DNA of 40,728 nucleotides from a virus (taxonomy: Duplodnaviria > Caudoviricetes), in IMG/VR virus record IMGVR_UViG_3300034100_000027, positions 1 through 40,728 of that record; one strand, written 5' to 3'. The notes beneath the pieces were generated by a model. It was not told the origin of the DNA and did not search any database. It saw nothing but the letters and a program-made list of their open reading frames with translations. A program made the translations under genes and the position numbers. Positions 14,737-39,750 of the stretch are shown here, one piece after another (the first letter of the stretch is position 1; every line of letters starts with the position of its first letter).

Positions 14737-15281
14737 CCAAAAACAAAAAGCCCCGCAAGCCCTACCGCCCTCGCCGGATCGCCTGCAACACGCTGGACAT
14801 CGCCCTGCACCACGCCGCCAAGCCCACCCCCGAAGACCTGCAAGACGTGCTGCAACCCATCGCCCAATGCATCAAGGCCCTGCGCGAGGGCGTAGCCACC
14901 GAAGGCCAATGGGCCATCGCCGCCGGCGCCGTGCAAATGGCCATGGCCATCGAGCGCCAGGGCATCGTGCGCGGCCTGGCAGAGGATCTGGCCGACGCAG
15001 AGCGCGCCCTGCAAAGCATCTACCGCCGCGCCACGGCCACCGGCGAATGGAAGAGCACCGCCCTCTACCACCAGGAAATCAATGATCTGCACACCTTCCT
15101 GAATCTCCACACCTTCCAGCTCCGCCAACTCGGCCGCCGCGAATTCCTGCGCGCCGTCGACGGCGCCGAGCGCCAGGTGCGCCGGGACGGCCACGTGCCG
15201 AGCAGAAGTAAATTATTGGCTAACGCCGAGGTAAATGGCGGGCGGCTTGCCGCCCGTCCAAGCGCCGAAGGCGCGGTTTGA
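14733..15281 (+). CDS. Hypothetical phage protein; C-terminus runs into attC
   Basis: ATGA-coupled; KKPRKPYRPR N-terminus. Confidence 0.75.
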   Translation: MTKNKKPRKPYRPRRIACNTLDIALHHAAKPTPEDLQDVLQPIAQCIKALREGVATEGQWAIAAGAVQMAMAIERQGIVRGLAEDLADAERALQSIYRRATATGEWKSTALYHQEINDLHTFLNLHTFQLRQLGRREFLRAVDGAERQVRRDGHVPSRSKLLANAEVNGGRLAARPSAEGAV

Positions 15282-15295
15282 CCGCGATGTTATGT
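15218..15295 (-). mobile_element. attC-like site A1 (78 bp)
   Basis: Minus strand: ACATAAC-atcgc-GGTCAAAC..hairpins..ATTTACC-tcggc-GTTAGCC; the L'' box has one extra C. Confidence 0.8.
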
Positions 15296-15308
15296 GTGGG
15301 AGATTGAA

Positions 15309-15587
15309 ATGCTGAAATACGTTGTTTGCCCCGGAATCGTGACCAGCAAGACAGACGGGCAGCGGCATTACGTCGGCCCTATGCAGCTAATGAAACTGTA
15401 CGGGGTTGATCCGCGAGAGTGCGAGATTTACGAGCCTGCTCCATGGTGGCCGAGCGCAATTTATAAGCAAGAGCAGGAACGGCACGCCGCATTGAGACTG
15501 GTTCGACTTGAGCCTCGCTATGACGGCAACTACACCATACCGACACATAACGCCAAATTAAGCGGGCGCGAAGCGATCCGCTCTTGA
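15309..15587 (+). CDS. Cassette-borne hypothetical protein
   Basis: GGAGATTGAAATG start; lower GC; lies between two attC sites. Confidence 0.75.
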   Translation: MLKYVVCPGIVTSKTDGQRHYVGPMQLMKLYGVDPRECEIYEPAPWWPSAIYKQEQERHAALRLVRLEPRYDGNYTIPTHNAKLSGREAIRS

Positions 15588-15601
15588 ATGACAAGTTATG
15601 C
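15545..15601 (-). mobile_element. attC-like site A2 (57 bp)
   Basis: Minus strand: GCATAAC-ttgtc-ATTCAAGA-GCGG..CCGC-TTAAT-ttggc-GTTATGT. Confidence 0.8.
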
Positions 15602-15626
15602 CGGGAACGGCGAAAGGAGAACTGAA

Positions 15627-15836
15627 ATGCTGATGAATCCACCCGTACTGCAAGCCGATTATGTGCCCGCCGTACCTGCCAATGATCTGGTGCTGGCGCT
15701 TCAACTGATACAGCACGCTACTGCACCGACCCCGGACGACGGCGGGCACCACGAGGCTGCGCATGACATTGCCAGCGAAGTGCTATTGCGTGTTGATGCG
15801 CGCAGGAAGTACGAGGCACGGCATAACAAGATATAG
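15627..15836 (+). CDS. Cassette-borne hypothetical protein
   Basis: AAGGAGAACTGAAATG start; 69 aa. Confidence 0.7.
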   Translation: MLMNPPVLQADYVPAVPANDLVLALQLIQHATAPTPDDGGHHEAAHDIASEVLLRVDARRKYEARHNKI

Positions 15837-15839
15837 GCA
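15821..15839 (-). mobile_element. attI-like simple site heading array A
   Basis: Minus strand TGCCTAT-ATCTT-GTTATGC; the R box is complementary to R'' of attC A2. Confidence 0.5.
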
Positions 15840-15872
15840 TCTCGTTAACGCTCTTTGCCCACGAATTAAGCA

Positions 15873-16169
15873 ATGTCCTACGCAAAAAAACGCTACCGCC
15901 TAGACCAGCTCGACGCCATGCGTGAGGCGCGGGCGGCGCGGCGGCTTGCGCGTGAGGTTGACTATCCAGCCCCGCGCCAACCTGGCCTCTTGGTGCTTGA
16001 CATCAATGGCCAGCGCATCGAGCTTGACCTCCATCCAGACGCGCGCGACTGTCGGCGCTGGCGCGCTTACCGCGACGGCCAGCCCTACACATGCGGCGGC
16101 CTCGAGCGCATTTGGCGCAAAGTGAAAGCCGACATGGCCCCGCTGATCGGGGCCAGGAATCTACTATGA
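15873..16169 (+). CDS. Hypothetical protein
   Basis: 98 aa ORF on the operon strand. Confidence 0.65.
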   Translation: MSYAKKRYRLDQLDAMREARAARRLAREVDYPAPRQPGLLVLDINGQRIELDLHPDARDCRRWRAYRDGQPYTCGGLERIWRKVKADMAPLIGARNLL

Positions 16170-16209
16170 ACGAACTCACCCGCCAGCACGCCGGCCACAG
16201 GAGCATGAT

Positions 16210-16491
16210 ATGAACACCGCTTTTTTGCTCATGGCTCAATACGACGCGGCCGCCATCATCCCAGTCGATAAGGTGGTCAAGGATTACTTTCCCCACCTCA
16301 GCACGGAAAAGTTCCTGCGCAAAGTTGCGATCGGCGACATCGACATTCCGCTCACCCGCATCGAAAGTGGATCGCAGAAAGCGGCCAGGGGCGTGCACTT
16401 GACAGACCTGGCCACCTACATCGATGCGCGACGTGCGGCAGCAGTAAAAGAGGCCCGCCAGATATCTGGCCTCTCCGCCAGTGCTACATGA
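16210..16491 (+). CDS. Pyocin activator PrtN-family protein (likely recombination directionality factor)
   Basis: MNTAFLLMAQY..SQKAARGVHLTDLATYID signature; adjacent to attP and int. Confidence 0.85.
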   Translation: MNTAFLLMAQYDAAAIIPVDKVVKDYFPHLSTEKFLRKVAIGDIDIPLTRIESGSQKAARGVHLTDLATYIDARRAAAVKEARQISGLSASAT

Positions 16492-16727
16492 GTGCTACAT
16501 GCACCTGGGCCAGATCGGTTAGCATGTTGATCTGCTTGGGTTTTCTCTTTTTAATCCGTCCAATCCAGCATCGGCGCGACACTTAACCGCGATCCCCTCT
16601 GACGATCGTTTTCCCCTCTGTCGTCACCATGCTGTCGGGCTGTCTGATTCACTCTTATTTGCCGCAGTTCTAGGCTTTTCCGTTCTGTCGGTGCTACATT
16701 TGGTGCTACAAAAACTCCATGTAGCAC
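16481..16727. mobile_element. attP with dusA-like core and integrase arm sites
   Basis: Minus strand 16589-16554 encodes RLSVAPMLDWTD (DusA N-terminal motif) followed by a stop; GTGCTACA repeats at 16481, 16492, 16691, 16703 and inverted at 16720-16727. Confidence 0.85.
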
Positions 16728-16731
16728 TGCA

Positions 16732-17799
16732 ATGGGAACGATTATCTCACGCAAGCGAAAAGACGGCACCATCGGGCACACCGCGCAGATCCGGCTCAAG
16801 GACGGCGGCAAGACCATTTTCACCGAATCGCAGACCTTTGATCGTAAGCCCGCAGCACAGGCCTGGCTGAAGAAGCGCGAGACCGAGCTGGCGGTGCCAG
16901 GTGCGCTGATCAAGCCCAGCGACCCCACCCTGGCCGCCGTAATCGACAAGTACAACGCGGACAAGCTGCGCCCGCATGGCAAGACCAAAGACCAGGTGCT
17001 GCGCACCATCAAGGCATCTGCCCTGGGCGAGCTGCGCTGCTCAGAGATCAAGAGCCACACGCTGGTGGAGTACATCCAGTCCATGACGTCACAGCCGCAG
17101 ACCCGCGGCAACTACCTGTCGCACTTGGCAGCCGTCTTCAGCGTGGCCAGGCCGGCATGGGGTTACCCGCTGGACAAAGGGGCGATCGACGACGCGCGGG
17201 TGGTGGCCGACAAGCTGGGGCTGATCAGCCGATCCAGACAGCGCACCAGGCGCCCCACGCTGCAAGAGCTGGACAAGCTGCTGACCTACTACGCTGCCTA
17301 CGAAAAGAAACGCAGCAACGCCATTCCCATGACGCGGCTGATCCTTTTCAGCATCTTTTCCACCCGCCGCCAAGAAGAGACCTGCCGCATGGTGGCTGAG
17401 GACCTGAACGCCGACCAGGCCGAGATCATCGTGCGCGACATGAAGAACCCCGGCGAGAAGATCGGCAACGACGTCACGACCCTGCTGACGCCCGAGGCCC
17501 TGCAGCTCATCCAGCAGCGCCACGTGGCCAATGGCCGCATCTGGCCATACAACGCCGAGTCGGTCAGCGCATCGTTCACCCGTGCCTGCGTGCTGCTGGG
17601 CATCGAGGATCTGCATTTCCACGACCTGCGGCATGAGGGCATCAGCCGCCTGTTCGAGCTGGGCTGGAACATCCCGCGCGTGGCCTGTGTCTCTGGCCAC
17701 CGCTCCTGGAAAAGCCTGCAACGCTACACCCACCTCAAACAGACGGGCGACAAGTACAAGGATTGGGAGTGGAAGAGCAAGCTGCTTGCGGGGGATTAG
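16732..17799 (+). CDS. int: Tyrosine integrase (dusA-associated type)
   Basis: Catalytic R (TRRQEE), K, HDLRH, SGH and RY motifs; adjacent dusA-like att core. Confidence 0.92.
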   Translation: MGTIISRKRKDGTIGHTAQIRLKDGGKTIFTESQTFDRKPAAQAWLKKRETELAVPGALIKPSDPTLAAVIDKYNADKLRPHGKTKDQVLRTIKASALGELRCSEIKSHTLVEYIQSMTSQPQTRGNYLSHLAAVFSVARPAWGYPLDKGAIDDARVVADKLGLISRSRQRTRRPTLQELDKLLTYYAAYEKKRSNAIPMTRLILFSIFSTRRQEETCRMVAEDLNADQAEIIVRDMKNPGEKIGNDVTTLLTPEALQLIQQRHVANGRIWPYNAESVSASFTRACVLLGIEDLHFHDLRHEGISRLFELGWNIPRVACVSGHRSWKSLQRYTHLKQTGDKYKDWEWKSKLLAGD

Positions 17800-18218
17800 C
17801 GAGGCTCACCCCACGCCCGCAGCCCTTGCCTGAGCGCTGCGCAGGCCAGCGCGGTGCGGTGATCGATCTTGCACACGCCGCCGACCAGCTTTTTGTAGCC
17901 GGACAGCGACATGCCCAGCGCCTCGGCGGCGGCCTCTTGGGTGTAGCCCATCAGCGCCTGCCAGGCGCGCAGGTCGGCGGGGGTCATGTGATCCGGCTGG
18001 CCAACGGGCGCAGCGGCGCACATATTGTCTTCTGTGCGTCGGATAGGTTGCACCACCCATCCTGCAGCCAGATCACCGGCTTGCTCGATGGCGCGCTGGG
18101 CCGCCGATGGCGAGGTGTAGATTTTTGCCGAGCCGGCGCTCTCGACCAGCTTGCCGCGCCAGAGATAACCGATGGTGTGGCCATGCGCGTCAAGCGCGCG
18201 GATGATATGCAGACTCAT
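17796..18218 (-). CDS. XRE-type HTH protein
   Basis: C-terminal MTPADLRAWQALMGYTQEAAAEALGMSLSGY. Confidence 0.75.
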   Translation of the reverse strand: MSLHIIRALDAHGHTIGYLWRGKLVESAGSAKIYTSPSAAQRAIEQAGDLAAGWVVQPIRRTEDNMCAAAPVGQPDHMTPADLRAWQALMGYTQEAAAEALGMSLSGYKKLVGGVCKIDHRTALACAALRQGLRAWGEPR

Positions 18219-18439
18219 GATTGCGACTTTATGGCCGTTGCGATTTTGTTTTGGTTAAGCGCCCGGACTGCACCAGCGTTGACTTGTGTATACACGCCAC
18301 ACTGAGACAGCGCAAGAGCACCAATCTCCATGTTTCGCTGGATGGTGCCGAGCATCCGCCAGCCCGGCAACGCATGGGTATACAGCCGCCACGGTCCGCC
18401 GAGCTGGACCGTGTAGCGGCCTCGGTTGAGGCCACCCAT
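18215..18439 (-). CDS. Hypothetical protein
   Basis: 74 aa; ATGA-coupled to the HTH gene. Confidence 0.65.
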   Translation of the reverse strand: MGGLNRGRYTVQLGGPWRLYTHALPGWRMLGTIQRNMEIGALALSQCGVYTQVNAGAVRALNQNKIATAIKSQS

Positions 18440-18441
18440 GA

Positions 18442-18669
18442 TCAGGCAGACCGCAAGGCCGTGGAGACCTTATCAATCAGATCAGCGGCGCGGCTGCGGA
18501 CCAGCGTGATCTGGCCAGCGACGCTTTCAGCGGTCTCCGTCGCCCCAAAGATGTTGACCGAGCCGATCTCTCGATTGATCTCAAGCATCTCAGCGGCGCT
18601 GCGCAGGAGACTGGCGGCGCTGCCAGCGGCGTTGCCGAGGTTGTCAAAAAACTTGATGTTTGCGTCCAT
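18442..18669 (-). CDS. Hypothetical protein
   Basis: AAGGA RBS; 75 aa. Confidence 0.7.
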   Translation of the reverse strand: MDANIKFFDNLGNAAGSAASLLRSAAEMLEINREIGSVNIFGATETAESVAGQITLVRSRAADLIDKVSTALRSA

Positions 18670-18736
18670 TTGATTTCCTTTGCCCCTCAAGCCGGGAGGC
18701 GCCGGGGACCTGCTTTATTGCCTGTCCATGTGTCAA

Positions 18737-18765
18737 ATTATAGTACCTTTACGGTACTATACAAG
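18737..18765 (-). promoter_or_regulatory. Sigma70 promoter overlapped by a palindromic operator
   Basis: TTGTAT-17 bp-TATAAT; inverted repeat TATAGTACC-tttac-GGTACTATA at 18739-18761. Confidence 0.75.
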
Positions 18766-18817
18766 CCCATCAACTACCGTTCGTCGGAAAGTTTTGAAAT
18801 AATTTCCCGCAAAATGC

Positions 18818-18850
18818 AAAAAAAACCCTCCAGCCCGAAGGCCAGAGGGG
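18818..18850 (-). terminator. Rho-independent terminator of the late/lysis operon
   Basis: CCCTCTGGCC-TTCG-GGCTGGAGGG hairpin followed by a T8 run. Confidence 0.75.
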
Positions 18851-18905
18851 AAAAAACCAGGCGGCCTGTGAGCGCCTGGGTGCAACTGCTTGGGGCAACG
18901 GGGCG

Positions 18906-19448
18906 CTACGGCGGCCTGGCCGCGCGGCGCAACAAATCTGCGCGGCAGCTCGCGTAGGCCAGGTTGATCTGGTCCGCCTGGCTCAGTCGCTCGCGAAGTA
19001 GTGCAGAAAGCTCTGCTGAAAGTAGCCCGCCGGCATCGGCTCGGTCTGCTGCACGATCTGGGGGGCCGGCTGGGGCTGCGTCTGGGGCGCCAGCACCACC
19101 GCGCCCACATCCGGGGCTGGTGGCGTTGGGGTCGCGCAGCCGCCCAGCAGGGCCGCCAAGGCGGCGCAGGCGATCAGCAAGGGCATTGGTAGTCTGTTGG
19201 TGTTGCGCATCTTGTAGCTCCTGTTTTTGGCGTATGTCTTGCAGCTCGCTCTCGCGCGCGAGCACCTTGGCGGTCTCGGCGGCCAGCAGTTCGGCGGCCT
19301 GCGCTTTTTGGCGCGCGATGGCGGCCTCGTAGTGATCGGTGGTGGTGGCCACGCCAGCGGCGTATTGGTGGCGCCCGTATTGCAGCGCGGCGATCAGCGC
19401 GAGCAGGATGGCCAGCAGGGCGGCGGCGGCTTTGGTGGATAGGCTCAT
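18906..19448 (-). CDS. Rz: i-spanin (Rz-like)
   Basis: N-terminal TM, coiled coil, end of lysis module, embedded lipoprotein gene. Confidence 0.8.
   Translation of the reverse strand: MSLSTKAAAALLAILLALIAALQYGRHQYAAGVATTTDHYEAAIARQKAQAAELLAAETAKVLARESELQDIRQKQELQDAQHQQTTNALADRLRRLGGPAGRLRDPNATSPGCGRGGAGAPDAAPAGPPDRAADRADAGGLLSAELSALLRERLSQADQINLAYASCRADLLRRAARPP
18983..19210 (-). CDS. Rz1: o-spanin lipoprotein (Rz1-like), nested in Rz
   Basis: Lipobox LLGG-C, Pro-rich, in an alternate frame inside Rz. Confidence 0.75.
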   Translation of the reverse strand: MRNTNRLPMPLLIACAALAALLGGCATPTPPAPDVGAVVLAPQTQPQPAPQIVQQTEPMPAGYFQQSFLHYFASD

Positions 19449-19603
19449 GGTTTGTACACCCCCATATCGCGCACCGGCACGTCGGCGCGGCGCTCGTAGC
19501 GCTCAAGCAGCTCGCGCTGCTGGCGGCGTTGGTCCCGCGCGCGCAGTGCGTCGATCTCGCGCGGGCGGCGTTTGCGGGGGGTGGCGCGGTGGGGTTTGCT
19601 CAC
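19445..19603 (-). CDS. Small basic hypothetical protein
   Basis: Start/stop overlaps on both sides. Confidence 0.5.
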   Translation of the reverse strand: MSKPHRATPRKRRPREIDALRARDQRRQQRELLERYERRADVPVRDMGVYKP

Positions 19604-19920
19604 GTCCCCACCTTCTCGCTCGTGCCGGCCCAAACGAATTCACCGTGCGCGCCAACCGGAAAGTGCTTGCGACAGGCGCAGCAGAATGTGCCGCTGTAAA
19701 AATCTGGCTGCCTTGCATAGGTCTCTGCCAGCGCGCGGCCCATGGTCGTCACAGTGCCGCATGGCTCGTGCACGTATGACGCGCGCACCGGGCGCACAAA
19801 GCCCAGCGCCCGCTCTTCGGCGCTGAGCACCACATAGGCCTTCTGTTGTCCTGTATTTGGGTCGATCTCACGGTGGTCGGGCGTAACGGGTGATCCGTCT
19901 GTCAAGGTGGTCTTGCTCAT
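19600..19920 (-). CDS. Hypothetical protein, possible Zn-binding
   Basis: HEPC..CCAC motifs; AGGAG RBS. Confidence 0.7.
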   Translation of the reverse strand: MSKTTLTDGSPVTPDHREIDPNTGQQKAYVVLSAEERALGFVRPVRASYVHEPCGTVTTMGRALAETYARQPDFYSGTFCCACRKHFPVGAHGEFVWAGTSEKVGT

Positions 19921-20132
19921 CGTGGTGCTCCTGTTTGTGCGGCCTCGGCGTTTGCGGCCTTCACCACTTCGCCGAGTGCCACGATATTGGTGGTGTCAAC
20001 GCGCAGAACGAGCGCGGCTTCGGTCATATAGCCGGCGTTCTGGAACGTGTAGCCAGACTGTTTCAGGTGTCGCTCGAATATCGACAACTTCCAGTCGTCG
20101 ATCACGATGCCTGCTTTTTTTTGATCGCTCAC
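19917..20132 (-). CDS. Hypothetical protein
   Basis: GTGA overlap with the endolysin stop; 71 aa. Confidence 0.65.
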   Translation of the reverse strand: MSDQKKAGIVIDDWKLSIFERHLKQSGYTFQNAGYMTEAALVLRVDTTNIVALGEVVKAANAEAAQTGAPR

Positions 20133-20587
20133 GCCAACCCCACAATCCCCGGCACCGTGCCGGCGTCGGTGATGGTGATCACCCGGTTGATCTGGCGCTC
20201 TGGCGTGTGGGTGGAGACGTGCACCCATTGCTTGCCTGCCACGCCCTCAAGGATGAGCTGGCCGATGCCCAGCACATCGACCCGTGGGGCCAGCAGGCGG
20301 GCCACCTCGGTGGGCTCGCCAAACGCGGGCGCCACGATGTCGGCGGCGTGGCCGCCGGTGTGGTCGCTGCTGGTGCGGCCGCCGACGGCCGCATTGAGCA
20401 CGGGGCACCGGTAGCCACTGGTCACGATGACCGGTGCGCCCAGCGTGGATCTGATGCGCTCCAGCATCTCGGCCAGCAGCACCAGGCGCGGCACGATCTC
20501 TGGCGGCGCGGTGTTGTCGATGCCGAGTGCTTGGGCCTTGTTGCTGCGGGTCAGCTCGGCCAGGGTGAAGTGTGGCGAGAGTTGCAT
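20129..20587 (-). CDS. Endolysin, peptidase M15A family
   Basis: LSPHFTLAEL, VTSGYRC..LN..VGG..SDHTGGHAADI, WVHVS. Confidence 0.9.
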   Translation of the reverse strand: MQLSPHFTLAELTRSNKAQALGIDNTAPPEIVPRLVLLAEMLERIRSTLGAPVIVTSGYRCPVLNAAVGGRTSSDHTGGHAADIVAPAFGEPTEVARLLAPRVDVLGIGQLILEGVAGKQWVHVSTHTPERQINRVITITDAGTVPGIVGLA

Positions 20588-20590
20588 GGC

Positions 20591-20911
20591 TCAGCCCTCC
20601 TTGATGCGTGTGCGCACAATTAATACCGCCAGCCCGGCCAGCGCCGCCACATGCCCAGGCGTGGGCTGCTCGCCGATGGTGATGAGCGTTGTGCTCAGCG
20701 GCCCGGAGCCGGCGGCGATCAGCGCCGTGCCGATCAGCGCGTCGATGGCGGCCAGCGCCAGCAAATACCAGGCCAGCGCCTTGAGCGCGTCCACCGTGCG
20801 CGTGTGCGCGCACATGCCGCGCGCCAGTGGGTCGCAGCGCAAGAGTTTGTTGATGGCCTCGGCCAGCACCACCAAGGCGGCGAGCGCGTGCAAGATGTGC
20901 AGCGTGCTCAT
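20591..20911 (-). CDS. Holin/antiholin-like membrane protein
   Basis: 3 hydrophobic segments; upstream of the endolysin. Confidence 0.65.
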   Translation of the reverse strand: MSTLHILHALAALVVLAEAINKLLRCDPLARGMCAHTRTVDALKALAWYLLALAAIDALIGTALIAAGSGPLSTTLITIGEQPTPGHVAALAGLAVLIVRTRIKEG

Positions 20912-21339
20912 GGCGCGCCCCCCTGCTCTGCTGGCGCCGCCTGCGCGGCCACGCGCATGACGTAGCGCGCCAGAATCTTCTGCGCGCCCGCGCCCACCAC
21001 AAAGGCAAACGCGAGCATGAGCGAGGGCGGCACGCTGCCCAGCAGCAGCACTAGCGGGACAAGGTAGCCAGCCGTCAGGCTGCTGGCGATGGTCACGCCC
21101 ATGCGCTTGAGCGTGGAGCGCAGCAGATCGCGCCAGGTGTCGTCCGTGGCGGGCACGGTGTTGAGCAATATCACCCCGGCGAGCGCGCCGCCGAAGCCCG
21201 CCATGAGCACGTCGATGCGCAACTCCAGCGGGACGCCAAAAAGCACCAGCGATGAAGACGCCGCCAGCGACAGCACCGGCACGCTTGCCGCCGCGGCCAC
21301 CAGCGTGGCGCCGGCTGCGGTAGAGGTTGGTTCAGCCAT
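20908..21339 (-). CDS. Putative holin
   Basis: MAEPTST start, about 4 TM segments; first gene of the lysis module. Confidence 0.7.
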   Translation of the reverse strand: MAEPTSTAAGATLVAAAASVPVLSLAASSSLVLFGVPLELRIDVLMAGFGGALAGVILLNTVPATDDTWRDLLRSTLKRMGVTIASSLTAGYLVPLVLLLGSVPPSLMLAFAFVVGAGAQKILARYVMRVAAQAAPAEQGGAP

Positions 21340-21373
21340 TATTTGTATCTCCTATCCATGTTGTCTTTGACCA

Positions 21374-21946
21374 TCAGCATGCCGCCAGCACCACCACCGC
21401 CGCATCGCACGCCGCCTGCGCGCTGGCAGCATCAGCCGCCGCCGTCACCGCGCGCTTGCCCGTGATGCGCTGCTGCTCGATCTGCGCACCCTTGGCCAGC
21501 CAGGCGTCGGCCTGATTGATGATGGCGTCGGCCGCGGCCTGCGTCTGCGCGGCGGTGGGTGTGGCGCCGTTGATGGCCATGGCCTCGGCCTGCACGTAGG
21601 CATAGCTTGCGAGCGTGGCAAATGGGTAGCCCGCGGCCTTGTAAGCGCGCGCCTGCTGGTCTTTGAGCAGGTAGGTGGCCTCTTGCCCAGCCGCCACGGT
21701 GATGTAGCGCGCACGCGCCGCTCCGGCGGCGGCGTCTATGGTGGCGTGCAGTTGCGCCGGCGTTGCGGGCGCGATCGGTGCGCGCACCACCGCGCCGCCA
21801 ATGTAGCGCCAGGCCGCAAAGCCGCCCTCGGCCAGGGCCTGGCCCTCTGCGTCTGATATGGGCACGGCCGTGGCCGGCGGCGCCAGGTAGTCGTCATTAA
21901 ACAGCTCAACGATGCGGTCGCCGGCGGTCACAATTTTGTAAGCCAT
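21374..21946 (-). CDS. Tail fibre assembly/chaperone-like protein
   Basis: IDAAAGAARARYIT..GQEATYLLK; follows the fibre gene. Confidence 0.6.
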   Translation of the reverse strand: MAYKIVTAGDRIVELFNDDYLAPPATAVPISDAEGQALAEGGFAAWRYIGGAVVRAPIAPATPAQLHATIDAAAGAARARYITVAAGQEATYLLKDQQARAYKAAGYPFATLASYAYVQAEAMAINGATPTAAQTQAAADAIINQADAWLAKGAQIEQQRITGKRAVTAAADAASAQAACDAAVVVLAAC

Positions 21947-21947
21947 G

Positions 21948-23239: not shown

Positions 23240-23246
23240 GGTGTTC

Positions 23247-31350: not shown

Positions 31351-31372
31351 GGTGTGTGTCTCCTCGGGGGTG

Positions 31373-32121: not shown

Positions 32122-32150
32122 GGACCTGGCTCCCTGGGTGTTGCGTCAGG

Positions 32151-32495
32151 TCAGGTGGCGACCGGCAGCAGCTGCACCAGCTTCATGTTGACGGTGGCGG
32201 ACGGGTTGGCCGCGGCCGCCACGGCCACGCCGACGCACTGCTGCGCGGTGGCGGTCTTATTGACGACCTTGTTGACCGAGTCCCAGTAGAGACGGTCGCC
32301 GACAGAGATTGCCAGGGCGCTGGTCTTGGCGATGTCAACCACGCCATCGGTCTGGAATTCGCCGGGCGTGTTGATGGCGACATCGCCCCTGGCGACACCG
32401 AAGAGGGCTTGGCCGAACAGGTAGCCGACGCCGGATGCAACGGCGGCGGCGGGGGTCAGGGTGAGGGTTTCACCGTCCTGCACATAGTTTTTCAT
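32151..32495 (-). CDS. Capsid cement/DUF2190 protein
   Basis: MKNYVQDG..GDRLYWD signature. Confidence 0.85.
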   Translation of the reverse strand: MKNYVQDGETLTLTPAAAVASGVGYLFGQALFGVARGDVAINTPGEFQTDGVVDIAKTSALAISVGDRLYWDSVNKVVNKTATAQQCVGVAVAAAANPSATVNMKLVQLLPVAT

Positions 32496-32562
32496 GAGGT
32501 TGCTCCGAAAATTGAATGGTTGGCTTGGCTCCCCAGGCCATCAGGCCCGGGGCTGTGCGTTA

Positions 32563-34605
32563 TCAGACGCCGGCTGCCTTGTAGAGGCCGCGGTAGTCGA
32601 TGTCGTTGGCGGCGAAGTCGAGGCGGCACTTGTAGTTGACGCCGTCGGTCTCGAAGCCGACTTCGCTTTCGATGACAGGGCCCTCGGCGCCGTCGAGGTA
32701 GCAGTATTCGACGGTGTCGATCTGCGAGCTGGCGGCAGCCAGGTACCAGGCGGTGGCGCTGGTGGCGTCGAGCACGGGCTCCACCACCGGCGTGAGGGCC
32801 GTGCGCCCGCCGGTGCGGAACTCGTTGACCTCGGCCTTGGTGCTGGGCACGTAGTTGCTGCTGGTGAGCTGGTAGGCCGTTTGCTCCAGCGCGGCGGGCA
32901 CGATGAGGTAGCTCGGCGCGAGGTTGAGCTCTTCGCTGGCCAGGCCTTTTTGCAGGCGCATTTTGGTGCGGCCGCTGGTCAGGGCGCTGATCTGCAGCGC
33001 GGTGCCGGCGCCTGTGTCGTAGTTGGCGTGCGTGGCATTGAACAGGGCCACGCCGTCGGCCATGTTGGCGTTGGCCGTCAGGATGCTGTAGACGGTGCGG
33101 TTTTCCAGGCGGCGCGCAGCGAAGCCGAAGGCGGACACCATGCGCTCGAAGGCGCGCAGGTCGTCGTTGACGATGGCCTGGCGGGTGAGCGAGACGATGC
33201 GCCCGTAGGTCAGCATCGAATAGGTCTCGGCGCCGTCGGTCATCTTGCCGTACTTGAACTCGCCGTGTTCGTTGACCTGCAGCAGATCGGGCGCGCCGGA
33301 GAGCTGCACGACGGACATGTTCTTGAAGTCCGGTGCGTTGGGGGCGCGGCGCGCCCACAGGCTGTAGGTGCCGGGGTTTTCGTCGTAGGCGTTGCGCAAG
33401 CGCTTGTTGGCGACGTTGGCAAACAGGCTGGTGAAGTCGCTGGTGCCCATGGAGCCGCCGGCACGGAAGTGCAGCATGCGCTGCGCCAGGGCCATGCGGT
33501 CCATGCCGCGGGTGTTGACGCCGTTGGCTTCCAGGAAGTCGCGCCCGATTTCAAGCAGGCTCATGCCGCGGTACTGGCGGCCGTTGTCGTCGAGCTGGGT
33601 GGCCGGTGCAATGCGGTGCAGGATGGCCTGCTCGATGCCGGCCATGCGCACCTGCATCTGGTCGGTGACGGTCTCGATCCGGCCGCCGACGTTGCGGTGG
33701 CCGCCGGCTGCGGCGTCACGGTGCGCCAGGGTGTCGAGGATTTTGCTGCGCGCGACGGCCACGTCAGCGCCGGAGCGGATGAGCTCGGGCGCGAGGTGGG
33801 CGACGTTGTGGCGGGAGCACAGTTCGCTGATTTCGGCGGTGCGCGCCAGGATGTCGGCGCTGTGGTCCACTGCCGCAGTGGGCGCGGAAGCTTGTGCAGC
33901 AGGCGCGGCGGCGGTGGGCTGGGCGCGGGTGTTGTCGGGGGTGGCGGGCGATGCTGCTGCGGCGCCGCCGGGCTGGTCTTTCGGATCCATGCGGGTTTCC
34001 TCTTGGGGTTGTTGGGCGGCTGCCCGGGTGGGGTCGGTGATGAACTCGCACGGCCAATCGCCTTGCGAGGGTTTCGCGCGGGTGCCGCTGCCGGCATCTG
34101 AGGGAACTGGTACGAAGCTGATCTCGGCCGGCGTCCAGCGCTCGGCGCGGTACAGGGGCACGGTGCCGCCGTCGGTGCGGCTTTCGGCGGGGACGATGAC
34201 GTAGCGCTGCACGGTGTAGCCGGCGCTGATGTGGCGGATGACGCCGCTTTGAATGTCGGCCACGATGCCGGCGAGCTCGGGGCGCTCGCTCAGGCGCACG
34301 GTGGCGCGGCCCTGCACGCCGTCGATCCAGGCGCGCTCGACCACGCCGATGATCTGGTTGAGGTCGTACTGGCCGTGGGTGTTGAGCACGCTGGCGCCGG
34401 CGTTCATGCGGGCGAGGTCCACCGCGTCGGCGCTGACGACGAGTTCTTCGTCGTAGTAGCGTTCGTTCCACCAGTCATAGCGGCGCACGATGGCGCCGGT
34501 GGTCCATACCACCTCCACCGTGCGCTTTTCAGCGTCGAACGTGGAGGGCTCGATCTGCGCGGCCCGCAACAGGGCGGGCAGCAGGTGGGTGGTGTTCATG
34601 TCCAT
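32563..34605 (-). CDS. Prohead protease-major capsid fusion protein
   Basis: N-terminal protease (VLNTH, ISAGY, EISFVPVPSD), scaffold-like linker, C-terminal capsid (TSDF..DFK..YGR..DYRGLYK); start uncertain (34599-34614). Confidence 0.9.
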   Translation of the reverse strand: MDMNTTHLLPALLRAAQIEPSTFDAEKRTVEVVWTTGAIVRRYDWWNERYYDEELVVSADAVDLARMNAGASVLNTHGQYDLNQIIGVVERAWIDGVQGRATVRLSERPELAGIVADIQSGVIRHISAGYTVQRYVIVPAESRTDGGTVPLYRAERWTPAEISFVPVPSDAGSGTRAKPSQGDWPCEFITDPTRAAAQQPQEETRMDPKDQPGGAAAASPATPDNTRAQPTAAAPAAQASAPTAAVDHSADILARTAEISELCSRHNVAHLAPELIRSGADVAVARSKILDTLAHRDAAAGGHRNVGGRIETVTDQMQVRMAGIEQAILHRIAPATQLDDNGRQYRGMSLLEIGRDFLEANGVNTRGMDRMALAQRMLHFRAGGSMGTSDFTSLFANVANKRLRNAYDENPGTYSLWARRAPNAPDFKNMSVVQLSGAPDLLQVNEHGEFKYGKMTDGAETYSMLTYGRIVSLTRQAIVNDDLRAFERMVSAFGFAARRLENRTVYSILTANANMADGVALFNATHANYDTGAGTALQISALTSGRTKMRLQKGLASEELNLAPSYLIVPAALEQTAYQLTSSNYVPSTKAEVNEFRTGGRTALTPVVEPVLDATSATAWYLAAASSQIDTVEYCYLDGAEGPVIESEVGFETDGVNYKCRLDFAANDIDYRGLYKAAGV

Positions 34606-34627
34606 GGGCATCACTGTGCCGATGGCG

Positions 34628-34654
34628 CTTTCTCATTTCCCGGAAAACTGAGAA
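34628..34654. promoter_or_regulatory. Late-activator binding site, copy 1
   Basis: CTTTCTCATTTCCCGGAAAACTGAGAA, imperfect palindrome, identical to 36523-36549. Confidence 0.75.
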
Positions 34655-34668
34655 TATTTAACAGCCGC

Positions 34669-36258
34669 TCAAAGGCCGAGGCCGAGCTGCGGTGAGGATG
34701 CGGCGTCTGCGGGTTCGGCAGTGGTGCGGGCTGGCTGCTTTTTCCTGGCCGATGTTGCGCTGGCCTGCGCGATGGCGCGGCTCGATGCGCCCATGGTGGC
34801 GCCCGTCTGTTGCTGGCCGGTCTGCAGTTGCAGGATGAGGTCGAGCGTGCCGTCGGCGCGCAGGCGCTCCATGTCGCTCTTGATTTCCTTGAACACCAGG
34901 TCTGGCTTGTAGCCGCGGCGGCGCAGTTTTTCACTGATGGAAGACAGGCCGCCGGAGATCTCCGCCAGGTCGGCCTTGACGTCCTGCTCGGGGTTGACGT
35001 AGTCCCACTTCGGGGTGGACCAGTCGCAGGTGTAGTCTGCCCGGCGCACTTTGCCGGCGAGGACGGCGGCGTCTATGAAGGCGCGCCAGATGGGGGCGCA
35101 CATCTTGGGGATGAGGGTGACCCATTGCGTGTGCTCTGCGCCACGGCGGAACTCCAGCAGGGCCACGCGGGCGCTGCTGAAGCTGGTGTCCTTCACGTCG
35201 CCGGTGAGCATTTCATAGGTGACGCCCATGCCGGCGGCGATAAGGTGCAGCTGGTGCTTGACGTAGTCCACATACCCGGGCGCGGCCTTGGGCTCGACGA
35301 GGGTGAGGTTCATGCCCGCCGGGGTGTTGACGATGCCGCCGCTGGGGAGTTGACCGAGCTCGCCGGTGGTTTTGACTTCGTCCGGGTTGGGTGCATCGGG
35401 CCCGTTGGCCATGAGAGATGCGTCGCCGCTGGCGAGCACGCCCAGGCGGGTTTCGAGGTTTTTGCGCTGTAGCTCCGCGTCTTCGTACAACTGCAGGTCA
35501 CGCACACGGGAGATGATGGGCGCCAGGCGGGTGAAGCCACGGCCCTGCCCCGGGCGCTTGGGGTTGTAGAGGTGGATGATCCGGTCTGCCGGCACGGGAC
35601 GGCTGGTGCGCAGGCTTCTGAATGTCTGCGCATCGCCGGGGTGCTGGTCGTAGAGCCAGTAGAAGACTTTGCGGCCCAGCGGGTCGTATTCGATACCGCC
35701 GATGATGGTGTTGGGGCCGTTGGTGCCGCTTTTGGTGCTGTCGATCCAGTCGATCTCCAGCAGCTGCAACTGCAGCGGCACGGGCAGGCCGTCGTCTGGC
35801 CGGCGTGCACGCAGGCGGATGAGCACCTCGCCATCCTGCTCCATGGCGTGGTAGGCGGCGGCCTGCAGGCCGTAGATGTCGCGCTCGCCGTCGGCGTCTG
35901 CCACGGCGCCCCACTCTTCCCACAGTTTGTCGATGGCGTCAGAGGCCGGCGCCAGGCTGCGCGGCGTGATGCCGGTGCCGATGACGTTGAAGACCAGCGA
36001 CTCCATGCCGTGGGCGATATAGGGCACGTTCTGCACCAGGGAGCGCGCACGCACGCGCAGCGTGCCGGCGTCTGCCAGGTGGTCTGCGTTGGCGCTGGCG
36101 CCGGGCCGGCGCGGGTGCCAGCCGTCTTTGGTGCTGGCGCCTTCGTAGGCGCGCTGCAGCAGCTCACGCGCACGCAGGCGGCGCAGGCCGGCGTTGGGGT
36201 CAATGGCGCCTATCAGCCGGTCGAGCAGGCTGGGGCTTGGCTTGCTGGGTACTGCCAT
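34669..36258 (-). CDS. Portal protein, lambda family
   Basis: RAYEGA, LRVRARSLVQN, GQGRG, YEMLTGD..SFSSAR, WDYVNPEQD. Confidence 0.93.
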   Translation of the reverse strand: MAVPSKPSPSLLDRLIGAIDPNAGLRRLRARELLQRAYEGASTKDGWHPRRPGASANADHLADAGTLRVRARSLVQNVPYIAHGMESLVFNVIGTGITPRSLAPASDAIDKLWEEWGAVADADGERDIYGLQAAAYHAMEQDGEVLIRLRARRPDDGLPVPLQLQLLEIDWIDSTKSGTNGPNTIIGGIEYDPLGRKVFYWLYDQHPGDAQTFRSLRTSRPVPADRIIHLYNPKRPGQGRGFTRLAPIISRVRDLQLYEDAELQRKNLETRLGVLASGDASLMANGPDAPNPDEVKTTGELGQLPSGGIVNTPAGMNLTLVEPKAAPGYVDYVKHQLHLIAAGMGVTYEMLTGDVKDTSFSSARVALLEFRRGAEHTQWVTLIPKMCAPIWRAFIDAAVLAGKVRRADYTCDWSTPKWDYVNPEQDVKADLAEISGGLSSISEKLRRRGYKPDLVFKEIKSDMERLRADGTLDLILQLQTGQQQTGATMGASSRAIAQASATSARKKQPARTTAEPADAASSPQLGLGL

Positions 36259-36261
36259 TGG

Positions 36262-36480
36262 TCAGTCTCCCCGGGCCGTGGTGAAGCGGAAGCTGTAGGC
36301 GGTGCGCGGTTTGTTGCCGACGCTGGCAGACGCCAGGTCGGCCTGGATGATGGCGCGTGCGCGCTCGAGGTCGGCCATGCTGCGATAGGTGACCTGCGAG
36401 CCGTTGGAGGCGCGCACGGTGAGTTCACCGGCGGCAATGGCGGCGTTGATGTTGTCGAGGTCGGTCTGGGTGAATGCCAT
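36262..36480 (-). CDS. Head-tail joining protein (gpW-like)
   Basis: MAFTQTDLD..AIAAGELTV..VTYRSMADL. Confidence 0.85.
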   Translation of the reverse strand: MAFTQTDLDNINAAIAAGELTVRASNGSQVTYRSMADLERARAIIQADLASASVGNKPRTAYSFRFTTARGD

Positions 36481-36522
36481 GGTGTCAGCGCCCTGGTTAC
36501 GGGGCTGACGTTATTCCTGTGC

Positions 36523-36549
36523 CTTTCTCATTTCCCGGAAAACTGAGAA
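36523..36549. promoter_or_regulatory. Late-activator binding site, copy 2
   Basis: 27-bp exact repeat of 34628-34654, upstream of gpW/portal. Confidence 0.75.
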
Positions 36550-36890
36550 AGTTTCTTGCGCCCGCCAGGCTGCTTGATGTGCCGGTACACGCTGGCGAGG
36601 CTGATGTTGAGCTTGCGCGCCACTTCCCTGGCGTTGCGTCCGTTGAATAGCGCCAGCACCTGCGTCACGGTTTCTTGTCGCGCTGTGGCGGGGCGTCCTG
36701 CGATGTAGCATTCCTCGCCCTTGAACTCTGCCCGCACGGAGGCCTTGAGCGCGTCGAGCTTTTTGCCCTGGGCTTCCGGCATGCGCTGCATGGCAAGGGA
36801 CAGCGCCGGGTCTTGAAAGATGTAGTCGAAGATGCGGTCGACCAGATCGGGCTCGGCCTCGATCATCTGCGGCAGGGTCTGTTTTGGCAT
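36528..36890 (-). CDS. Mor/C-family transcription activator
   Basis: EFKGEECYI..LFNGRNAREVARKLNISLASVYRHIK. Confidence 0.8.
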   Translation of the reverse strand: MPKQTLPQMIEAEPDLVDRIFDYIFQDPALSLAMQRMPEAQGKKLDALKASVRAEFKGEECYIAGRPATARQETVTQVLALFNGRNAREVARKLNISLASVYRHIKQPGGRKKLSQFSGK

Positions 36891-36892
36891 GG

Positions 36893-38842
36893 CTACCAGT
36901 TCCTTCCAAAATTCGGGGGCTTCGGTGTTTTTCTGGGCGGCTCTGGGGTACGTTTCGTCGCGCCGATCGGCACCGCCACGGCCTGTGCAGACGTGTGCAC
37001 GGCGGGCGCGTCTTCGGGCTCCACCATGGCGGCGCGCCTGTCCCAGTCCCCCGCCTTCCACTTGTGGAGGTACAGCTCTGGGTGGTGGCTGGCGGCCAGG
37101 GCGAGGACCCAGGTGTCCAGGGCCTCGTTGCGCTTGCCTTTCTTGATCTCCCACCGGTTTTTGCGGGGGTTGAAGGTTTCGCTCACCAGCTGGTCGTAGT
37201 AGCCGCTGTCGAGCTGGTTGCTGAAGTGCACTTGCCGGTCTTCGGCGGGTTTTTCGGCGTCGCCGGTGAGGCGGTTGTAGAGCAGGTGCTTGGCGGTGTC
37301 GGCGCCGATGAGGTAGAGCATGACGCCGCGCTTTTGGGTGACGCCGCGCCAGTTGACGTCTTGCGCGCTGGGTTTGCCGAGGATGGCTTTGCCGGGGGTG
37401 CTGGCGCCTTTGCAGGCCAGGGCGCGGCGCACGCGGTTGCTGCGCACGAAGGCGTAGACGGCGTGGGTGTGGTGGCCGCCTGTGTCTATGGCGCAGGCTT
37501 CGCTGGTGAGTTCGCGGCCGTGGGCGTTGGCAAATCGGACGTTGTTGACGTAGTCTGCCAGGGAGCCCCACAGGGCGTCTTCGGCGGGGTTGCCGGGCAG
37601 GACGTGGTAGTCGAGCGTCCAGTTGCGGCCGCCCTTGCCGTGGCCGAGCACCTGCACTTCAAGGCGGTTGTCTTGCGTGTCCACACCGACGGTGATGACC
37701 AGGCAGCCGGCGGGTACGGTGCGCAGCTGGTAGGGCTCGGCGCGCGCTTCCAGGGCGTTGGCCTTGATGTCTTTGCTGCGGTCGGCCCAGGTCTCGCCCA
37801 TGCGGGTGTTCATGAAGCGCATGAGCTTGGCGGGGTCGTCCTGCGCGGTGATCCACTCAGCGGCCAGCTCGCGCCAGCTCAGGCCCAGGCCGATGGGTGA
37901 GTACAGGGCGTTGATGTGGTAGCTGGGGTGTGGGGCGTCTGGCGCCTCGGCCACCCAGCGGGCGCGGCCGCCGTGGCCCAGCTCGGCGAGCATGGCGGGC
38001 TTGTGGTGTTCGGCGATCTCGCCGCCGCATTCTTTGCAGACGTACCAGGCGTCCAGGATGCGGCGCGGGTTGTCGGGGTGTTTGCGCCACTTGAGGTTGC
38101 CCCACACCAGGTGCTGCAGCTCGCCGCAGTGGGGGCATGGCACGTGGTAGCGGCGGCGGTCGCCGGCCTCGAACAGCTCTTCGATCCGGCTGGCGTCTTT
38201 CATCGTGGGGCTGCTGGGCACGAAGAGCTTGTGGTCGTGGAAGGTGGTGAGGCGCACCTCCACGAGGCCCAGGGGGTCGCCCTGGGTGGTGGACCAGTCC
38301 CACTCGTCCACTTCGTCGGCCAGGGCGTAGCGCAGGCTGGAGCTTTTGAGCTCGGCGGTGCTGCCGGCGGTTTTGAAGTAGAGGATGCCGCCGGTGAACT
38401 TTTTGCGCTGGGCGTTGTTGTCTGAAGAGTTGTTGTTGCGCTTGGCCAGCACGGCGGCGACGGCTGGGGTTTCGGTGGCCATGGGGTCGAACTTTTGCGA
38501 CACCCAGTCGTTGAGCGACTTCTCGGTGGGCATGAGCACGGCGGCCGGGCCCTTGGCGTGGGCCATGATGTAGCCAAGCCAGTTGCTGCCTACCTCGGTG
38601 CCGCCCACCTGGCTGGACTTCATGAAGGGCACCAGCTTGGCGGGCGAGTGCTCGGACAGTTGGTCCATGATCTCGCGCAGGAAGGGTGTGCGCGAGGTGC
38701 GCCACGGCCCTGGCGCGGCGCTGCCCACCTCTGACAACATGCGGTTGGCGTCGGCCCATTCGGACACCGTCAACCGCTGCTTGGGCCGCCAGCCGCGCTC
38801 GAATGCGCGCAGGGCCAGGTGGTGGATGTGGGAGGCGCCCAT
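36893..38842 (-). CDS. terL: Terminase large subunit, GpA family
   Basis: LTVSEWAD, MKSSQVGGTE, ADEVD, SSPT, VPCPHCG, GVDTQDNRLE, RNEALD. Confidence 0.95.
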   Translation of the reverse strand: MGASHIHHLALRAFERGWRPKQRLTVSEWADANRMLSEVGSAAPGPWRTSRTPFLREIMDQLSEHSPAKLVPFMKSSQVGGTEVGSNWLGYIMAHAKGPAAVLMPTEKSLNDWVSQKFDPMATETPAVAAVLAKRNNNSSDNNAQRKKFTGGILYFKTAGSTAELKSSSLRYALADEVDEWDWSTTQGDPLGLVEVRLTTFHDHKLFVPSSPTMKDASRIEELFEAGDRRRYHVPCPHCGELQHLVWGNLKWRKHPDNPRRILDAWYVCKECGGEIAEHHKPAMLAELGHGGRARWVAEAPDAPHPSYHINALYSPIGLGLSWRELAAEWITAQDDPAKLMRFMNTRMGETWADRSKDIKANALEARAEPYQLRTVPAGCLVITVGVDTQDNRLEVQVLGHGKGGRNWTLDYHVLPGNPAEDALWGSLADYVNNVRFANAHGRELTSEACAIDTGGHHTHAVYAFVRSNRVRRALACKGASTPGKAILGKPSAQDVNWRGVTQKRGVMLYLIGADTAKHLLYNRLTGDAEKPAEDRQVHFSNQLDSGYYDQLVSETFNPRKNRWEIKKGKRNEALDTWVLALAASHHPELYLHKWKAGDWDRRAAMVEPEDAPAVHTSAQAVAVPIGATKRTPEPPRKTPKPPNFGRNW

Positions 38843-38860
38843 TTGTAAGCTTGCGAGGTT

Positions 38861-38879
38861 GGCTTATTTGGCGTTGGGC
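38861..38879 (+). mobile_element. attI-like simple site heading array B
   Basis: GGCTTAT-TTGGC-GTTGGGC; the R box is complementary to R'' of attC B1. Confidence 0.5.
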
Positions 38880-39148
38880 GCCATGATTCTGGCGTGGCTT
38901 AATGCCTCAATCTGATCGTCATTTAGATTCGCGGCGTGGTCGATCACGATCCCGCTAAATTCGCAAGCCCGGATATTTCTCCTATCCAGCCACGATGGTG
39001 GCTTTATTTCCAGATCATCGCGCCCGAGGCCAGCCGCCAGCATTTCCGGGTAGGCCAGATGCTGGTTCACCCAAACGTACACGGCGCACTCTGGCGCTGC
39101 CAGCATTTGTTTTGTGGTTCTTCCGGTTTGCCTGTCATCCATTTCCAT
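38864..39148 (-). CDS. Cassette-borne hypothetical protein
   Basis: 94 aa, GGAGAGG RBS; RQTGRTT..IVIDHA resembles a degenerate P-loop. Confidence 0.7.
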   Translation of the reverse strand: MEMDDRQTGRTTKQMLAAPECAVYVWVNQHLAYPEMLAAGLGRDDLEIKPPSWLDRRNIRACEFSGIVIDHAANLNDDQIEALSHARIMAPNAK

Positions 39149-39164
39149 TCCTCTCCGGGCCTGT

Positions 39165-39227
39165 GCCCAACCTTACGGTGCAGCCGAGCCGCCGCAAGCG
39201 GCGTCCTGCTGACCTTTTACGTTCGGC
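39165..39227 (+). mobile_element. attC-like site B1 (63 bp)
   Basis: GCCCAAC-cttac-GGTGCAGC..GCCGC-AA-GCGGC..GCTGACC-ttttac-GTTCGGC. Confidence 0.8.
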
Positions 39228-39466
39228 GTCTTCGTGAAATCGACAGCCTCGCCGTTAAGCATGTCCACGCGGCGCGGTGAGTAGTCATTGATGCCTGACT
39301 TCGAGACGATCCAGTGGCCATCCCACCCCGCAAAAGTGATCCAGCGCTTTGTGCCTGGGCACTTTGTCACGCGCAGCCGGTCTCCGGTTTTCAGCACCTT
39401 CTTGGCGTTCTCCTCGGCAATGAGGCGCAGCCTCCTGTTCTCTGCTCGCTGTTCTTCAGTCAACAT
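39173..39466 (-). CDS. Cassette-borne hypothetical protein
   Basis: GGAGACTGAAATG start; 97 aa. Confidence 0.7.
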   Translation of the reverse strand: MLTEEQRAENRRLRLIAEENAKKVLKTGDRLRVTKCPGTKRWITFAGWDGHWIVSKSGINDYSPRRVDMLNGEAVDFTKTPNVKGQQDAACGGSAAP

Positions 39467-39750
39467 TTCAGTCTCCATTGTTCTGGCCGGCAGCCGCCGA
39501 ACTCTACGTTCTGCCCTTGTGCCGTGCGGACAAACTCTGCCGCCTCCGCTGCGGGCACCCACCGGTCGCCGAGGAATTTCCGGTCTTTCACCGGCATCAC
39601 GCGCAGCTGCTCGTTTTTGTACGGGTGCCGCGCTGCCAAGGCCGCGAGATCGTCCGCAAACTCGAAGGCGTATTGCCGGCACCCCTTGCCAAAGCGGTAC
39701 ACCAGCGCCGCCAGTGGCGGAATGCCGGGTTGCTGTTTCTCCGTGTTCAT
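39460..39750 (-). CDS. Hypothetical protein
   Basis: ATGA-coupled to terS; AAGGGG RBS. Confidence 0.65.
   Translation of the reverse strand: MNTEKQQPGIPPLAALVYRFGKGCRQYAFEFADDLAALAARHPYKNEQLRVMPVKDRKFLGDRWVPAAEAAEFVRTAQGQNVEFGGCRPEQWRLKC
39496..39514 (+). mobile_element. Collapsed attC remnant B2
   Basis: GCCGAAC-TCTAC-GTTCTGC: R'' and R' present, L boxes and stem missing. Confidence 0.6.

Follow-up and report, generated by a model that had tools for sequence, protein, structure and literature searches.

The window analysed here, the whole stretch of 40,728 nucleotides (nt) of the virus record IMGVR_UViG_3300034100_000027 (Caudoviricetes), contains two short arrays of gene cassettes with recombination sites of the integron type (attC), in which the open reading frames (ORFs) lie on the attC bottom strand and cross the recombination point into the adjoining site. 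The reading which we consider probable, from comparison of sequences, is that these are integron-type attC cassettes read on the bottom strand, that the rule by which crossing ORFs read the crossover AAC as an in-frame asparagine (Asn) is mostly a by-product, and that the C-terminal tails acquired beyond it are mostly neutral.

The textbook integron cassette is a gene-then-attC unit read from the Pc promoter, and shuffling alters its expression and never the protein sequence. In phage DNA 184 of 190 callable cassettes (survey counts, here and below, are among the matches listed) have the opposite polarity and, because neighbours complete nearly half of the phage cassettes, recombination rewrites C-termini.

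Polarity of the attC sites and structure of the arrays

Array 1, which closes the early block of rightward genes, is composed of the following features.

14733..15281, + strand: ORF 14733, resident early-operon gene, phrog_20828; crosses S1 with Asn164 at 15222, tail NAEVNGGRLAARPSAEGAV and stop
15218..15295, + strand (bottom strand of the site): S1, intact attC, crossover AAC 15222-15224; moves with cassette 15309
15299..15311, + strand: start signal GGAGA-T-TGAAATG
15309..15587, + strand: cassette ORF 15309, phrog_7644, matched up to residue 77; crosses S2 with Asn81 at 15549, tail NAKLSGREAIRS and stop
15545..15601, + strand: S2, intact attC, crossover AAC 15549-15551; moves with cassette 15627
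15627..15836, + strand: cassette ORF 15627, 69 amino acids (aa), without PHROG, Pfam or NCBIfam match; crosses S3 with Asn67 at 15825, tail NKI and stop
15821..15840, + strand: S3, hairpin-less terminal site, AAC-N6-TAG

Array 2 lies between the small and large terminase genes.

39460..39750, - strand: ORF 39750, cassette ORF, own attC lost, in overlap (ATGA) with the stop of the small terminase gene; crosses S6 with Asn81 at 39510, tail NVEFGGCRPEQWRLKC and stop
39496..39514, - strand: S6, collapsed attC, in which just 5 nt separate AAC from GTTCGGC
39173..39466, - strand: cassette ORF 39466, 97 aa; crosses S5 with Asn82 at 39223, tail NVKGQQDAACGGSAAP and stop
39165..39227, - strand (bottom strand of the site): S5, intact attC with an unpaired C, crossover AAC 39223-39221; moves with cassette 39148
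38864..39148, - strand: cassette ORF 39148, 94 aa; crosses S4 with Asn92 at 38875, tail NAK and stop
38860..38879, - strand: S4, hairpin-less terminal site, AAC-N6-TAA, directly upstream of the terminase large subunit

The core boxes follow RYYYAAC/GTTRRRY (ACATAAC/GTTATGT, GCATAAC/GTTATGC, GCCCAAC/GTTGGGC and GCCGAAC/GTTCGGC), and the end core of each cassette is the exact complement of the core following its upstream attC. An attC site is defined by R and L boxes and by an unpaired base facing the AAC on the bottom strand (text of Nivina et al. 2016, PMC5027507). On the ORF strand an unpaired L'' base opposite the AAC arm is found in S1 and S2 (G) and in S5 (C) and is absent from S3, S4 and S6, and S2, read on its coding strand, matches in layout the bottom strand of attC-aadA7 as printed in the supplement of Qi et al. 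(2023, PMC9892861). By this definition and this comparison the strand that codes is the bottom strand of attC. It carries every cassette ORF of the window, and none is a top-strand ORF ending before or in R'', the arrangement of a canonical cassette.

A preliminary description of this DNA had stated that attC polarity is opposite to the ORFs, that six ORFs read the AAC of a site as in-frame Asn without an earlier stop, and that all six are cassette ORFs at cassette sites. The first statement is borne out in both arrays by the unpaired L'' base of S1, S2 and S5, and the second holds for six of six. Of the third, the frames of all six stand, but the sites are three intact attC, two hairpin-less and one deleted, and ORF 14733 is resident. 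Array 1, with S1 and S2 within 330 nt, has the two or more nearby attC sites of a cluster of attC sites lacking integron integrase (CALIN), and array 2 has one intact attC site and one collapsed; there is no integron integrase nearby and no intI gene such as a complete integron carries.

In array 1, the similarity of ORF 14733 to its homologues ceases at DGHVP (about nt 15200), seven residues ahead of the Asn, and 55 homologues end soon after DGHVP without Asn or attC tail. Seven foreign residues, which replace the natural end of the protein, are likely what is left of the end of a deleted cassette; ORF 14733 is no cassette itself but a resident gene with such a remnant joined to it. Its terminating TGA contains the unpaired G of S1 at 15280, and the L'' TTGA of S2 provides the stop of ORF 15309, whose homologues are ordinary phage operon genes with an end at about the same point. 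S3 may be an attI-like or secondary site. The S2 attC sequence (15547-15611) is also found in two other deep contigs of run X1, from one sample (possibly the source of the phage), one of which joins it at the core to another upstream end. In the contigs of two sequencing runs compared with array 1, one of them possibly from the source sample, no joint skips a cassette; among the runs listed as containing this DNA none is of RNA.

In array 2, the stop of ORF 39750 overlaps the start of the following ORF. An intact form of this cassette, with its own attC and a matching core, is present in L389; S6 likely arose by internal deletion and is predicted to be non-recombinogenic. The homologues of ORF 39466 are plain operon genes at four of six loci and, at the other two (L007, L009), inverted cassettes terminating at the core TAA. 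Three cassettes in this genome retain their own intact attC, and the arrays are partly decayed; S6 and the distal cassettes would represent this decay.

Survey of viral and bacterial loci

At least 252 viral loci were fetched with four frame-neutral attC patterns (46 of them with short flanks), and 126 bacterial loci with one pattern, about one fifth of its matches. Sites were called with a heuristic attC detector, which finds S1 and S5. The 378 viral intervals formed 303 clusters, counted as distinct intervals, of which 184 were inverted, 6 canonical, 7 ambiguous, 82 uncalled and 24 excluded for mismatched cores. Thus the inversion of ORFs with respect to attC holds outside this genome as well. 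Bacterial loci with intervals, several of which overlap, gave 29 canonical, 4 inverted and 5 ties out of 38, and 28 of the 29 canonical loci served as controls. A metagenome scan yielded two confirmed loci among 598 stretches.

Core complementarity was dropped as a test of polarity, being symmetric, and pairs of the same cassette with shared neighbours were chosen in its place. In 17 such pairs, the upstream attC alone was shared in six, the downstream attC alone in none, neither in eight and both in three (p = 0.03); L007 and L009 form an extra pair with the same upstream and a different downstream attC. From six pairs versus none, and from L007/L009, it follows that the attC upstream of an ORF moves with it and that the crossover is at the ORF 3' end. 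As judged from these relatives, the mobile unit consists of attC, ribosome-binding site and ORF.

Exceptions to a fixed association of site and gene are also found: in each of the comparisons L070 versus L318/L327, L012 versus L269 and L367 versus L368 a shared cassette ORF has different own attC sites, which suggests attC replacement besides reordering. In L009, L012, L026, L040, L055 and L079 the hairpin of a long attC site encloses the start codon, with its ribosome-binding site, of the cassette gene to which the site belongs, and starts are called upstream of the site end in 27 of the 184 cassettes.

A Pfam match was obtained for 21 of 107 longer, validated cassette ORFs, comprising 11 DNA methylases, Tad3, MazG, dATP/dGTP pyrophosphohydrolase, RtcB, RNA ligase, NinX and others. 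The inverted cassettes for Tad3 (anti-Thoeris; L137:3792-4229, - strand), MazG (L137:2568-2882, - strand), dATP/dGTP pyrophosphohydrolase (L270:3449-3766) and RtcB (L066:2590-3699, - strand) are likely counter-defence cargo.

It might be objected that the ORFs are chance or mis-called, the hairpins being terminators or repeats and the real genes lying on the other strand. Long opposite-strand ORFs are indeed common in GC-rich DNA, the two strands are close in unconstrained folding energy, and the Rfam scan gave no match. This explanation is largely refuted and we find it hardly credible: five of the six array ORFs have homologues and are thereby placed on the real coding strand (for ORF 15627 its own cluster alone was looked up), none of seven opposite-strand ORFs matched PHROG, so that the real coding sequence on the opposite strand which would have contradicted the preliminary description was looked for there and not found, the codon model places the called frame first among the six for 168 of the 184 inverted cassettes, the detector called nine false sites when run on a Markov control of 862 kb, and in relatives the neighbouring sequence changes exactly at the AAC. 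None of the six array ORFs has a Pfam or NCBIfam match above cut-off, and ESM Atlas gave no usable lead, with top scores of 0.78 and 0.81.

Reading frame at the crossover

The fates of the 184 inverted-cassette ORFs differ: 82 read through at Asn and one does so off the Asn frame, while the core TAA ends 55 and an earlier stop the remaining 46. Crossing is therefore nearly always at Asn (82 of 83 crossing ORFs, and 73 of 73 after the codon-model check), although only 45% of the ORFs (82/184) cross in this way and 101 stop at or before the site. At the surveyed rate the six-of-six of the window has p = 0.008, uncorrected for the window having been chosen for this pattern. The preliminary description had proposed a frame-standardised format without earlier stops and a tabulation of the AAC frame in other phage genomes. 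In the tabulation, the Asn frame of crossing ORFs was upheld but universal crossing was not, and the format found no support: ORF frames with respect to the AAC are divided into 85 Asn, 62 TAA and 37 third frame, and a homologue of ORF 39466 ends at the TAA. The split is uniform in the first set of loci (29:32:23, p = 0.47) and skewed in the second (56:30:14).

The near absence of other crossings is not what open frames alone would give. Off-frame read-through occurs in 1 of 62 and 0 of 37 ORFs, against 39% and 65% of frames expected to be open (p = 1e-12 and 2e-17), the expected rates being taken from cassettes in other frames. AAC codon usage is no explanation for the Asn rule, since AAC within the same ORFs is distributed 429:305:205. 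The core TAA is kept in 56 of 62 ORFs in its frame versus 67 of 122 others, and a TGA at position -8 is present in 25 of 37 ORFs in its frame versus 32 of 147 others (p ~5e-7 for each). The TGA at -8 is a DNA-level feature, because canonical bacterial cassettes have it too (15/71). Overrun or fusion with the next gene is found in 10 of 184 modules for the Asn frame versus 44 and 44 for the other two.

Most probably the Asn rule came about as a by-product of an end motif which closes the other two frames. Array genes would be read on the attC bottom strand and, because they lie there, it is the gene 3' end that meets the crossover AAC. With its TGA at -8 and its core TAA, the consensus of cassette ends would shut two frames and leave only the AAC frame open across the crossover; ORFs in the shut frames would retain the stop they use, with stop-loss being purged, and Asn-frame genes would draw stop codon and tail from the adjoining site, where the downstream module would usually close the frame quickly by a spacer stop, by the TTGA of L'' or, in terminal sites, by the N6-TAG. 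The exchange of adjoining sites is likely carried out by an integron integrase in trans, from the host or a co-infecting source, and expression likely comes from the phage operons around the arrays, as the co-orientation suggests.

Some candidate features of the phage cassettes turned out to be general. An attC length of 1 mod 3, considered as a phage adaptation for an in-frame L'' TGA, was rejected, being found in 103 of 225 viral but also in 37 of 64 canonical bacterial sites, and an extended inverted repeat of about 9 nt at the cassette ends was rejected as phage-specific, since bacterial cassettes have it also. Both the 1-mod-3 lengths and the inverted repeats reaching ~9 nt beyond AAC/GTT are thus common to phage and bacterial cassettes. 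Early closure of the Asn frame was not shown to be phage-specific: 12 of 182 viral versus 8 of 68 canonical cassettes leave this frame open beyond the site (p = 0.19).

Start signals and translational coupling

The signal GGAGA-N1-2-TGAAATG is present exactly three times in the genome (15299, 15616 and 39476), each time preceding a cassette ORF; that three cassette ORFs share it had been described. It is found in only one of 184 surveyed cassettes and is therefore local to this phage. The distances from stop to next start in the window are 27, 39, 36, -7, 24 and 21 nt, with overlap only at the S6 junction (1/6); in the survey 33 of 184 cassettes have an Asn-frame stop in overlap with the next start, and in 80 the two are separated by over 40 nt. 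The earlier suggestion that translational coupling is maintained across cassettes is not supported by these figures.

They bear equally on the alternative that the format is selected and frame-standardised, with ribosomes entering each attC hairpin in the Asn frame and so keeping downstream genes translated. We regard this as distinctly unlikely, and hold the same low opinion of its proposed route, read-through or re-initiation at an overlapping start. The 82 of 83 read-throughs at Asn and the excess of the Asn frame agree with it, as do near-site stops of third-frame ORFs, which are [AGT]TGA overlaps in 30 of 34, and the finding that 95 of 99 cassettes with ORFs in other frames keep the Asn frame free of stops across their last 17 nt, versus 84 and 81 of 99 further upstream. 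Short ORFs within attC have moreover been described to aid downstream translation in class 1 integrons (PMC8876359, as far as its text was available). Against it, 31 of the 82 Asn read-throughs stop two residues in, ahead of the hairpin, stop-start overlap is infrequent, a ribosome-binding site accompanies only 12 of 93 candidate re-initiation codons, and the identical motif and length-mod-3 bias is found in canonical bacterial attC (37/64). In the available text of PMC11511950, attC removal has little effect on downstream expression for most class 1 cassettes tested.

The by-product reading has difficulties of its own. The Asn frame is in excess overall (85/184, p = 3e-4), which weakens it, because its pure form does not predict such an excess. 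Asn-frame start codons just before the site are somewhat enriched in other-frame ORFs (71/93 versus 48/85, p = 0.007), a weak hint of re-initiation which also counts in favour of a selected format. Among hairpin-less terminal sites of viral arrays, 16 of 45 place a stop exactly in the Asn frame as AAC-N6-stop, compared with 0-7 of 45 at other offsets, and this could be an adaptation. On the side of sampling, the detector misses S2, the four seeding patterns are GC-rich, and 82 of 303 intervals are uncalled.

Taken to its furthest, selection would mean that phages own a mirror-image integron with one licensed frame, in which each shuffle reorders accessory and anti-defence genes and rewrites C-termini, tuning dose; this we place on the unlikely side. 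In it, attC sites and a terminal site of their own, AAC-N6-TAG, would have a form that takes ribosomes through each recombination point at Asn, likewise a conjecture with some chance of being right. If true, site-specific recombination would serve as a diversifier of protein tails.

Exchange of C-terminal tails

Reordering had been predicted to swap C-terminal tails, and it does. In the family of ORF 39750, 31 of 32 proteins were anchored, 29 have Asn at the junction, and the 31 carry 29 distinct tails of 2-39 aa; identity averages 92% in the core and 17% in the tail. These tails are probably attC translations, because of their form and of the DNA evidence in other families. In L335/L347 and in L318/L327 an identical cassette stands before different attC sites and has different tails, and two close relatives of ORF 39148 likewise end in P-N with other tails. 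By these comparisons of related loci tail swapping is real.

Homologues outside cassettes end around the Asn position without a tail, so that the domain is complete before the crossover. The tails are likely mostly neutral appendages on complete domains. They might instead be functional, with reordering giving a new C-terminus which tunes stability (protease tags) or partners, from a combinatorial tail library. The 29 distinct tails on one core would fit this, as would the composition of Asn-frame tails, rich in Gly/Ala/Ser/Pro/Thr (48%) and low in Arg+Lys (11%, versus 29% and 20% in the other frames), and dose could matter for cargo such as the DNA methylases (11 of 107 ORFs scanned) and the anti-Thoeris protein Tad3. 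The tails have no common motif or length, their sequence is constrained by attC folding, and homologues outside cassettes do without them, all of which leaves functional tails a poor chance of being right.

Terminal sites and integron integrases

S3 and S4 belong to the AAC-N6-stop class of terminal sites; the 45 sites counted for it leave out 10 other candidates, judged to be attC that had been missed. Sites of the form AAC-N6-TAG(AC/GG) recur at the ends of many phage arrays and are found in L054, L077, L137, L140, L270, L278, L284, L303, L311, L337, L356, L362 and L367, and in the window at 15825-15840 and 38875-38860. A motif scan of the loci with AAC-N6-TAG terminal sites found no IntI, and such sites are possibly an orphan attI class.

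A true IntI is encoded in 5 of the 252 viral loci (L282, L297, L298, L359 and L376; TIGR02249, 415-473 bits). Viral intI sits downstream of the attC sites and is encoded on their bottom strand, and the cassette ORFs of these loci, where called, share its strand; array and intI could form a single operon there. The terminal sites called beside IntI (L282, L297 and L376) fall outside the AAC-N6-stop class.

Genome context of the arrays

The record is an entire virus genome of 40.7 kb with overlapping ends. Its gene content includes lambda-like terminase, portal and head genes, primase, a ParB-like protein, excisionase and a tyrosine integrase, and the virus is a temperate phage. Best GenBank matches are among Burkholderia and Ralstonia phages, and no GenBank phage record spans array 1 or array 2. 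The integrase was considered as the cassette recombinase and ruled out, not being IntI-like.

16732..17799, + strand: phage tyrosine integrase, distinct from integron integrase (TIGR02249 15.7 bits, cut-off 265)

The integron integrase profile TIGR02249 has no match in the whole phage genome. Within 15100-16300, around array 1, no sigma-70-like site was found (0.5 expected), and a Pc promoter in this region would run antisense to the array 1 ORFs.

Other features of the genome include a 21-nt tandem repeat in three to four copies (50-126 and 40648-40728), which lies within the terminal overlap and in an apparent gene of the DNA methylase/ParB type that precedes the small terminase. A short AT-richer module with small minus-strand ORFs lies 3' of the integrase (17796-18690), with an inverted-repeat-like operator region near 18735-18765. 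A pair of 41-nt inverted repeats (83%; 6257-6297 and 7844-7884) flanks the repressor region and probably represents operator sites.

Comparison with known systems

CALINs in phages have been published by Qi et al. (2023, PMC9892861), with cassettes including orphan DNA methylases, and five of six phage CALIN sites tested recombined with attI1 via IntI1. The phage described here resembles them in having attC clusters without an integron integrase. It differs in its bottom-strand ORFs, crossing ORFs, Asn rule and tail exchange, none of which was found in the text of that paper, figures aside; in its text and supplement the words 'opposite', 'reverse' and 'in-frame' occur zero times each. No description of inverted phage cassettes or of the Asn rule was found in titles and abstracts of the literature searched, which mostly does not cover subscription journals and bioRxiv supplements. 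Phage CALINs are thus already known, while cassette inversion and the Asn rule are apparently new within this literature.

With canonical cassettes, as presented in the text of PMC5027507, the phage cassettes share R and L boxes, the unpaired base opposite the AAC, the AAC crossover and complementary cassette ends. Canonical ORFs lie on the top strand, begin after the crossover and end at R'', so that reordering leaves the protein unchanged, whereas the phage ORF ends at the crossover and the neighbour completes 45% of the surveyed ORFs. At a host attI an inverted cassette would face Pc and likely be silent, so that phage and bacterial pools would stay separate. For annotation it matters that the cassette tails lie outside the protein families, and the plain phage-operon homologues with the same end point provide a handle on how cassettes are made.

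The hairpin-less S3 and S4 resemble the attG sites of Loot et al. (bioRxiv 10.1101/2022.09.11.507474), according to whose available text hairpin-less GWT sites take up cassettes; insertion of the attG type would offer a route into phage operons. Unlike a bare GWT attG, S3 and S4 carry the longer AAC-N6-TAG/TAA and are nearer to a degenerate attI simple site. The closest parallel in translation is ORF-11 of attI1, in the part of PMC8876359 available, whose frame also crosses the recombination point and takes its stop from the incoming cassette, and which is proposed to aid downstream translation. ORF-11, however, is a fixed top-strand leader peptide, whereas in the phage arrays cargo genes cross, on the bottom strand and at every junction.

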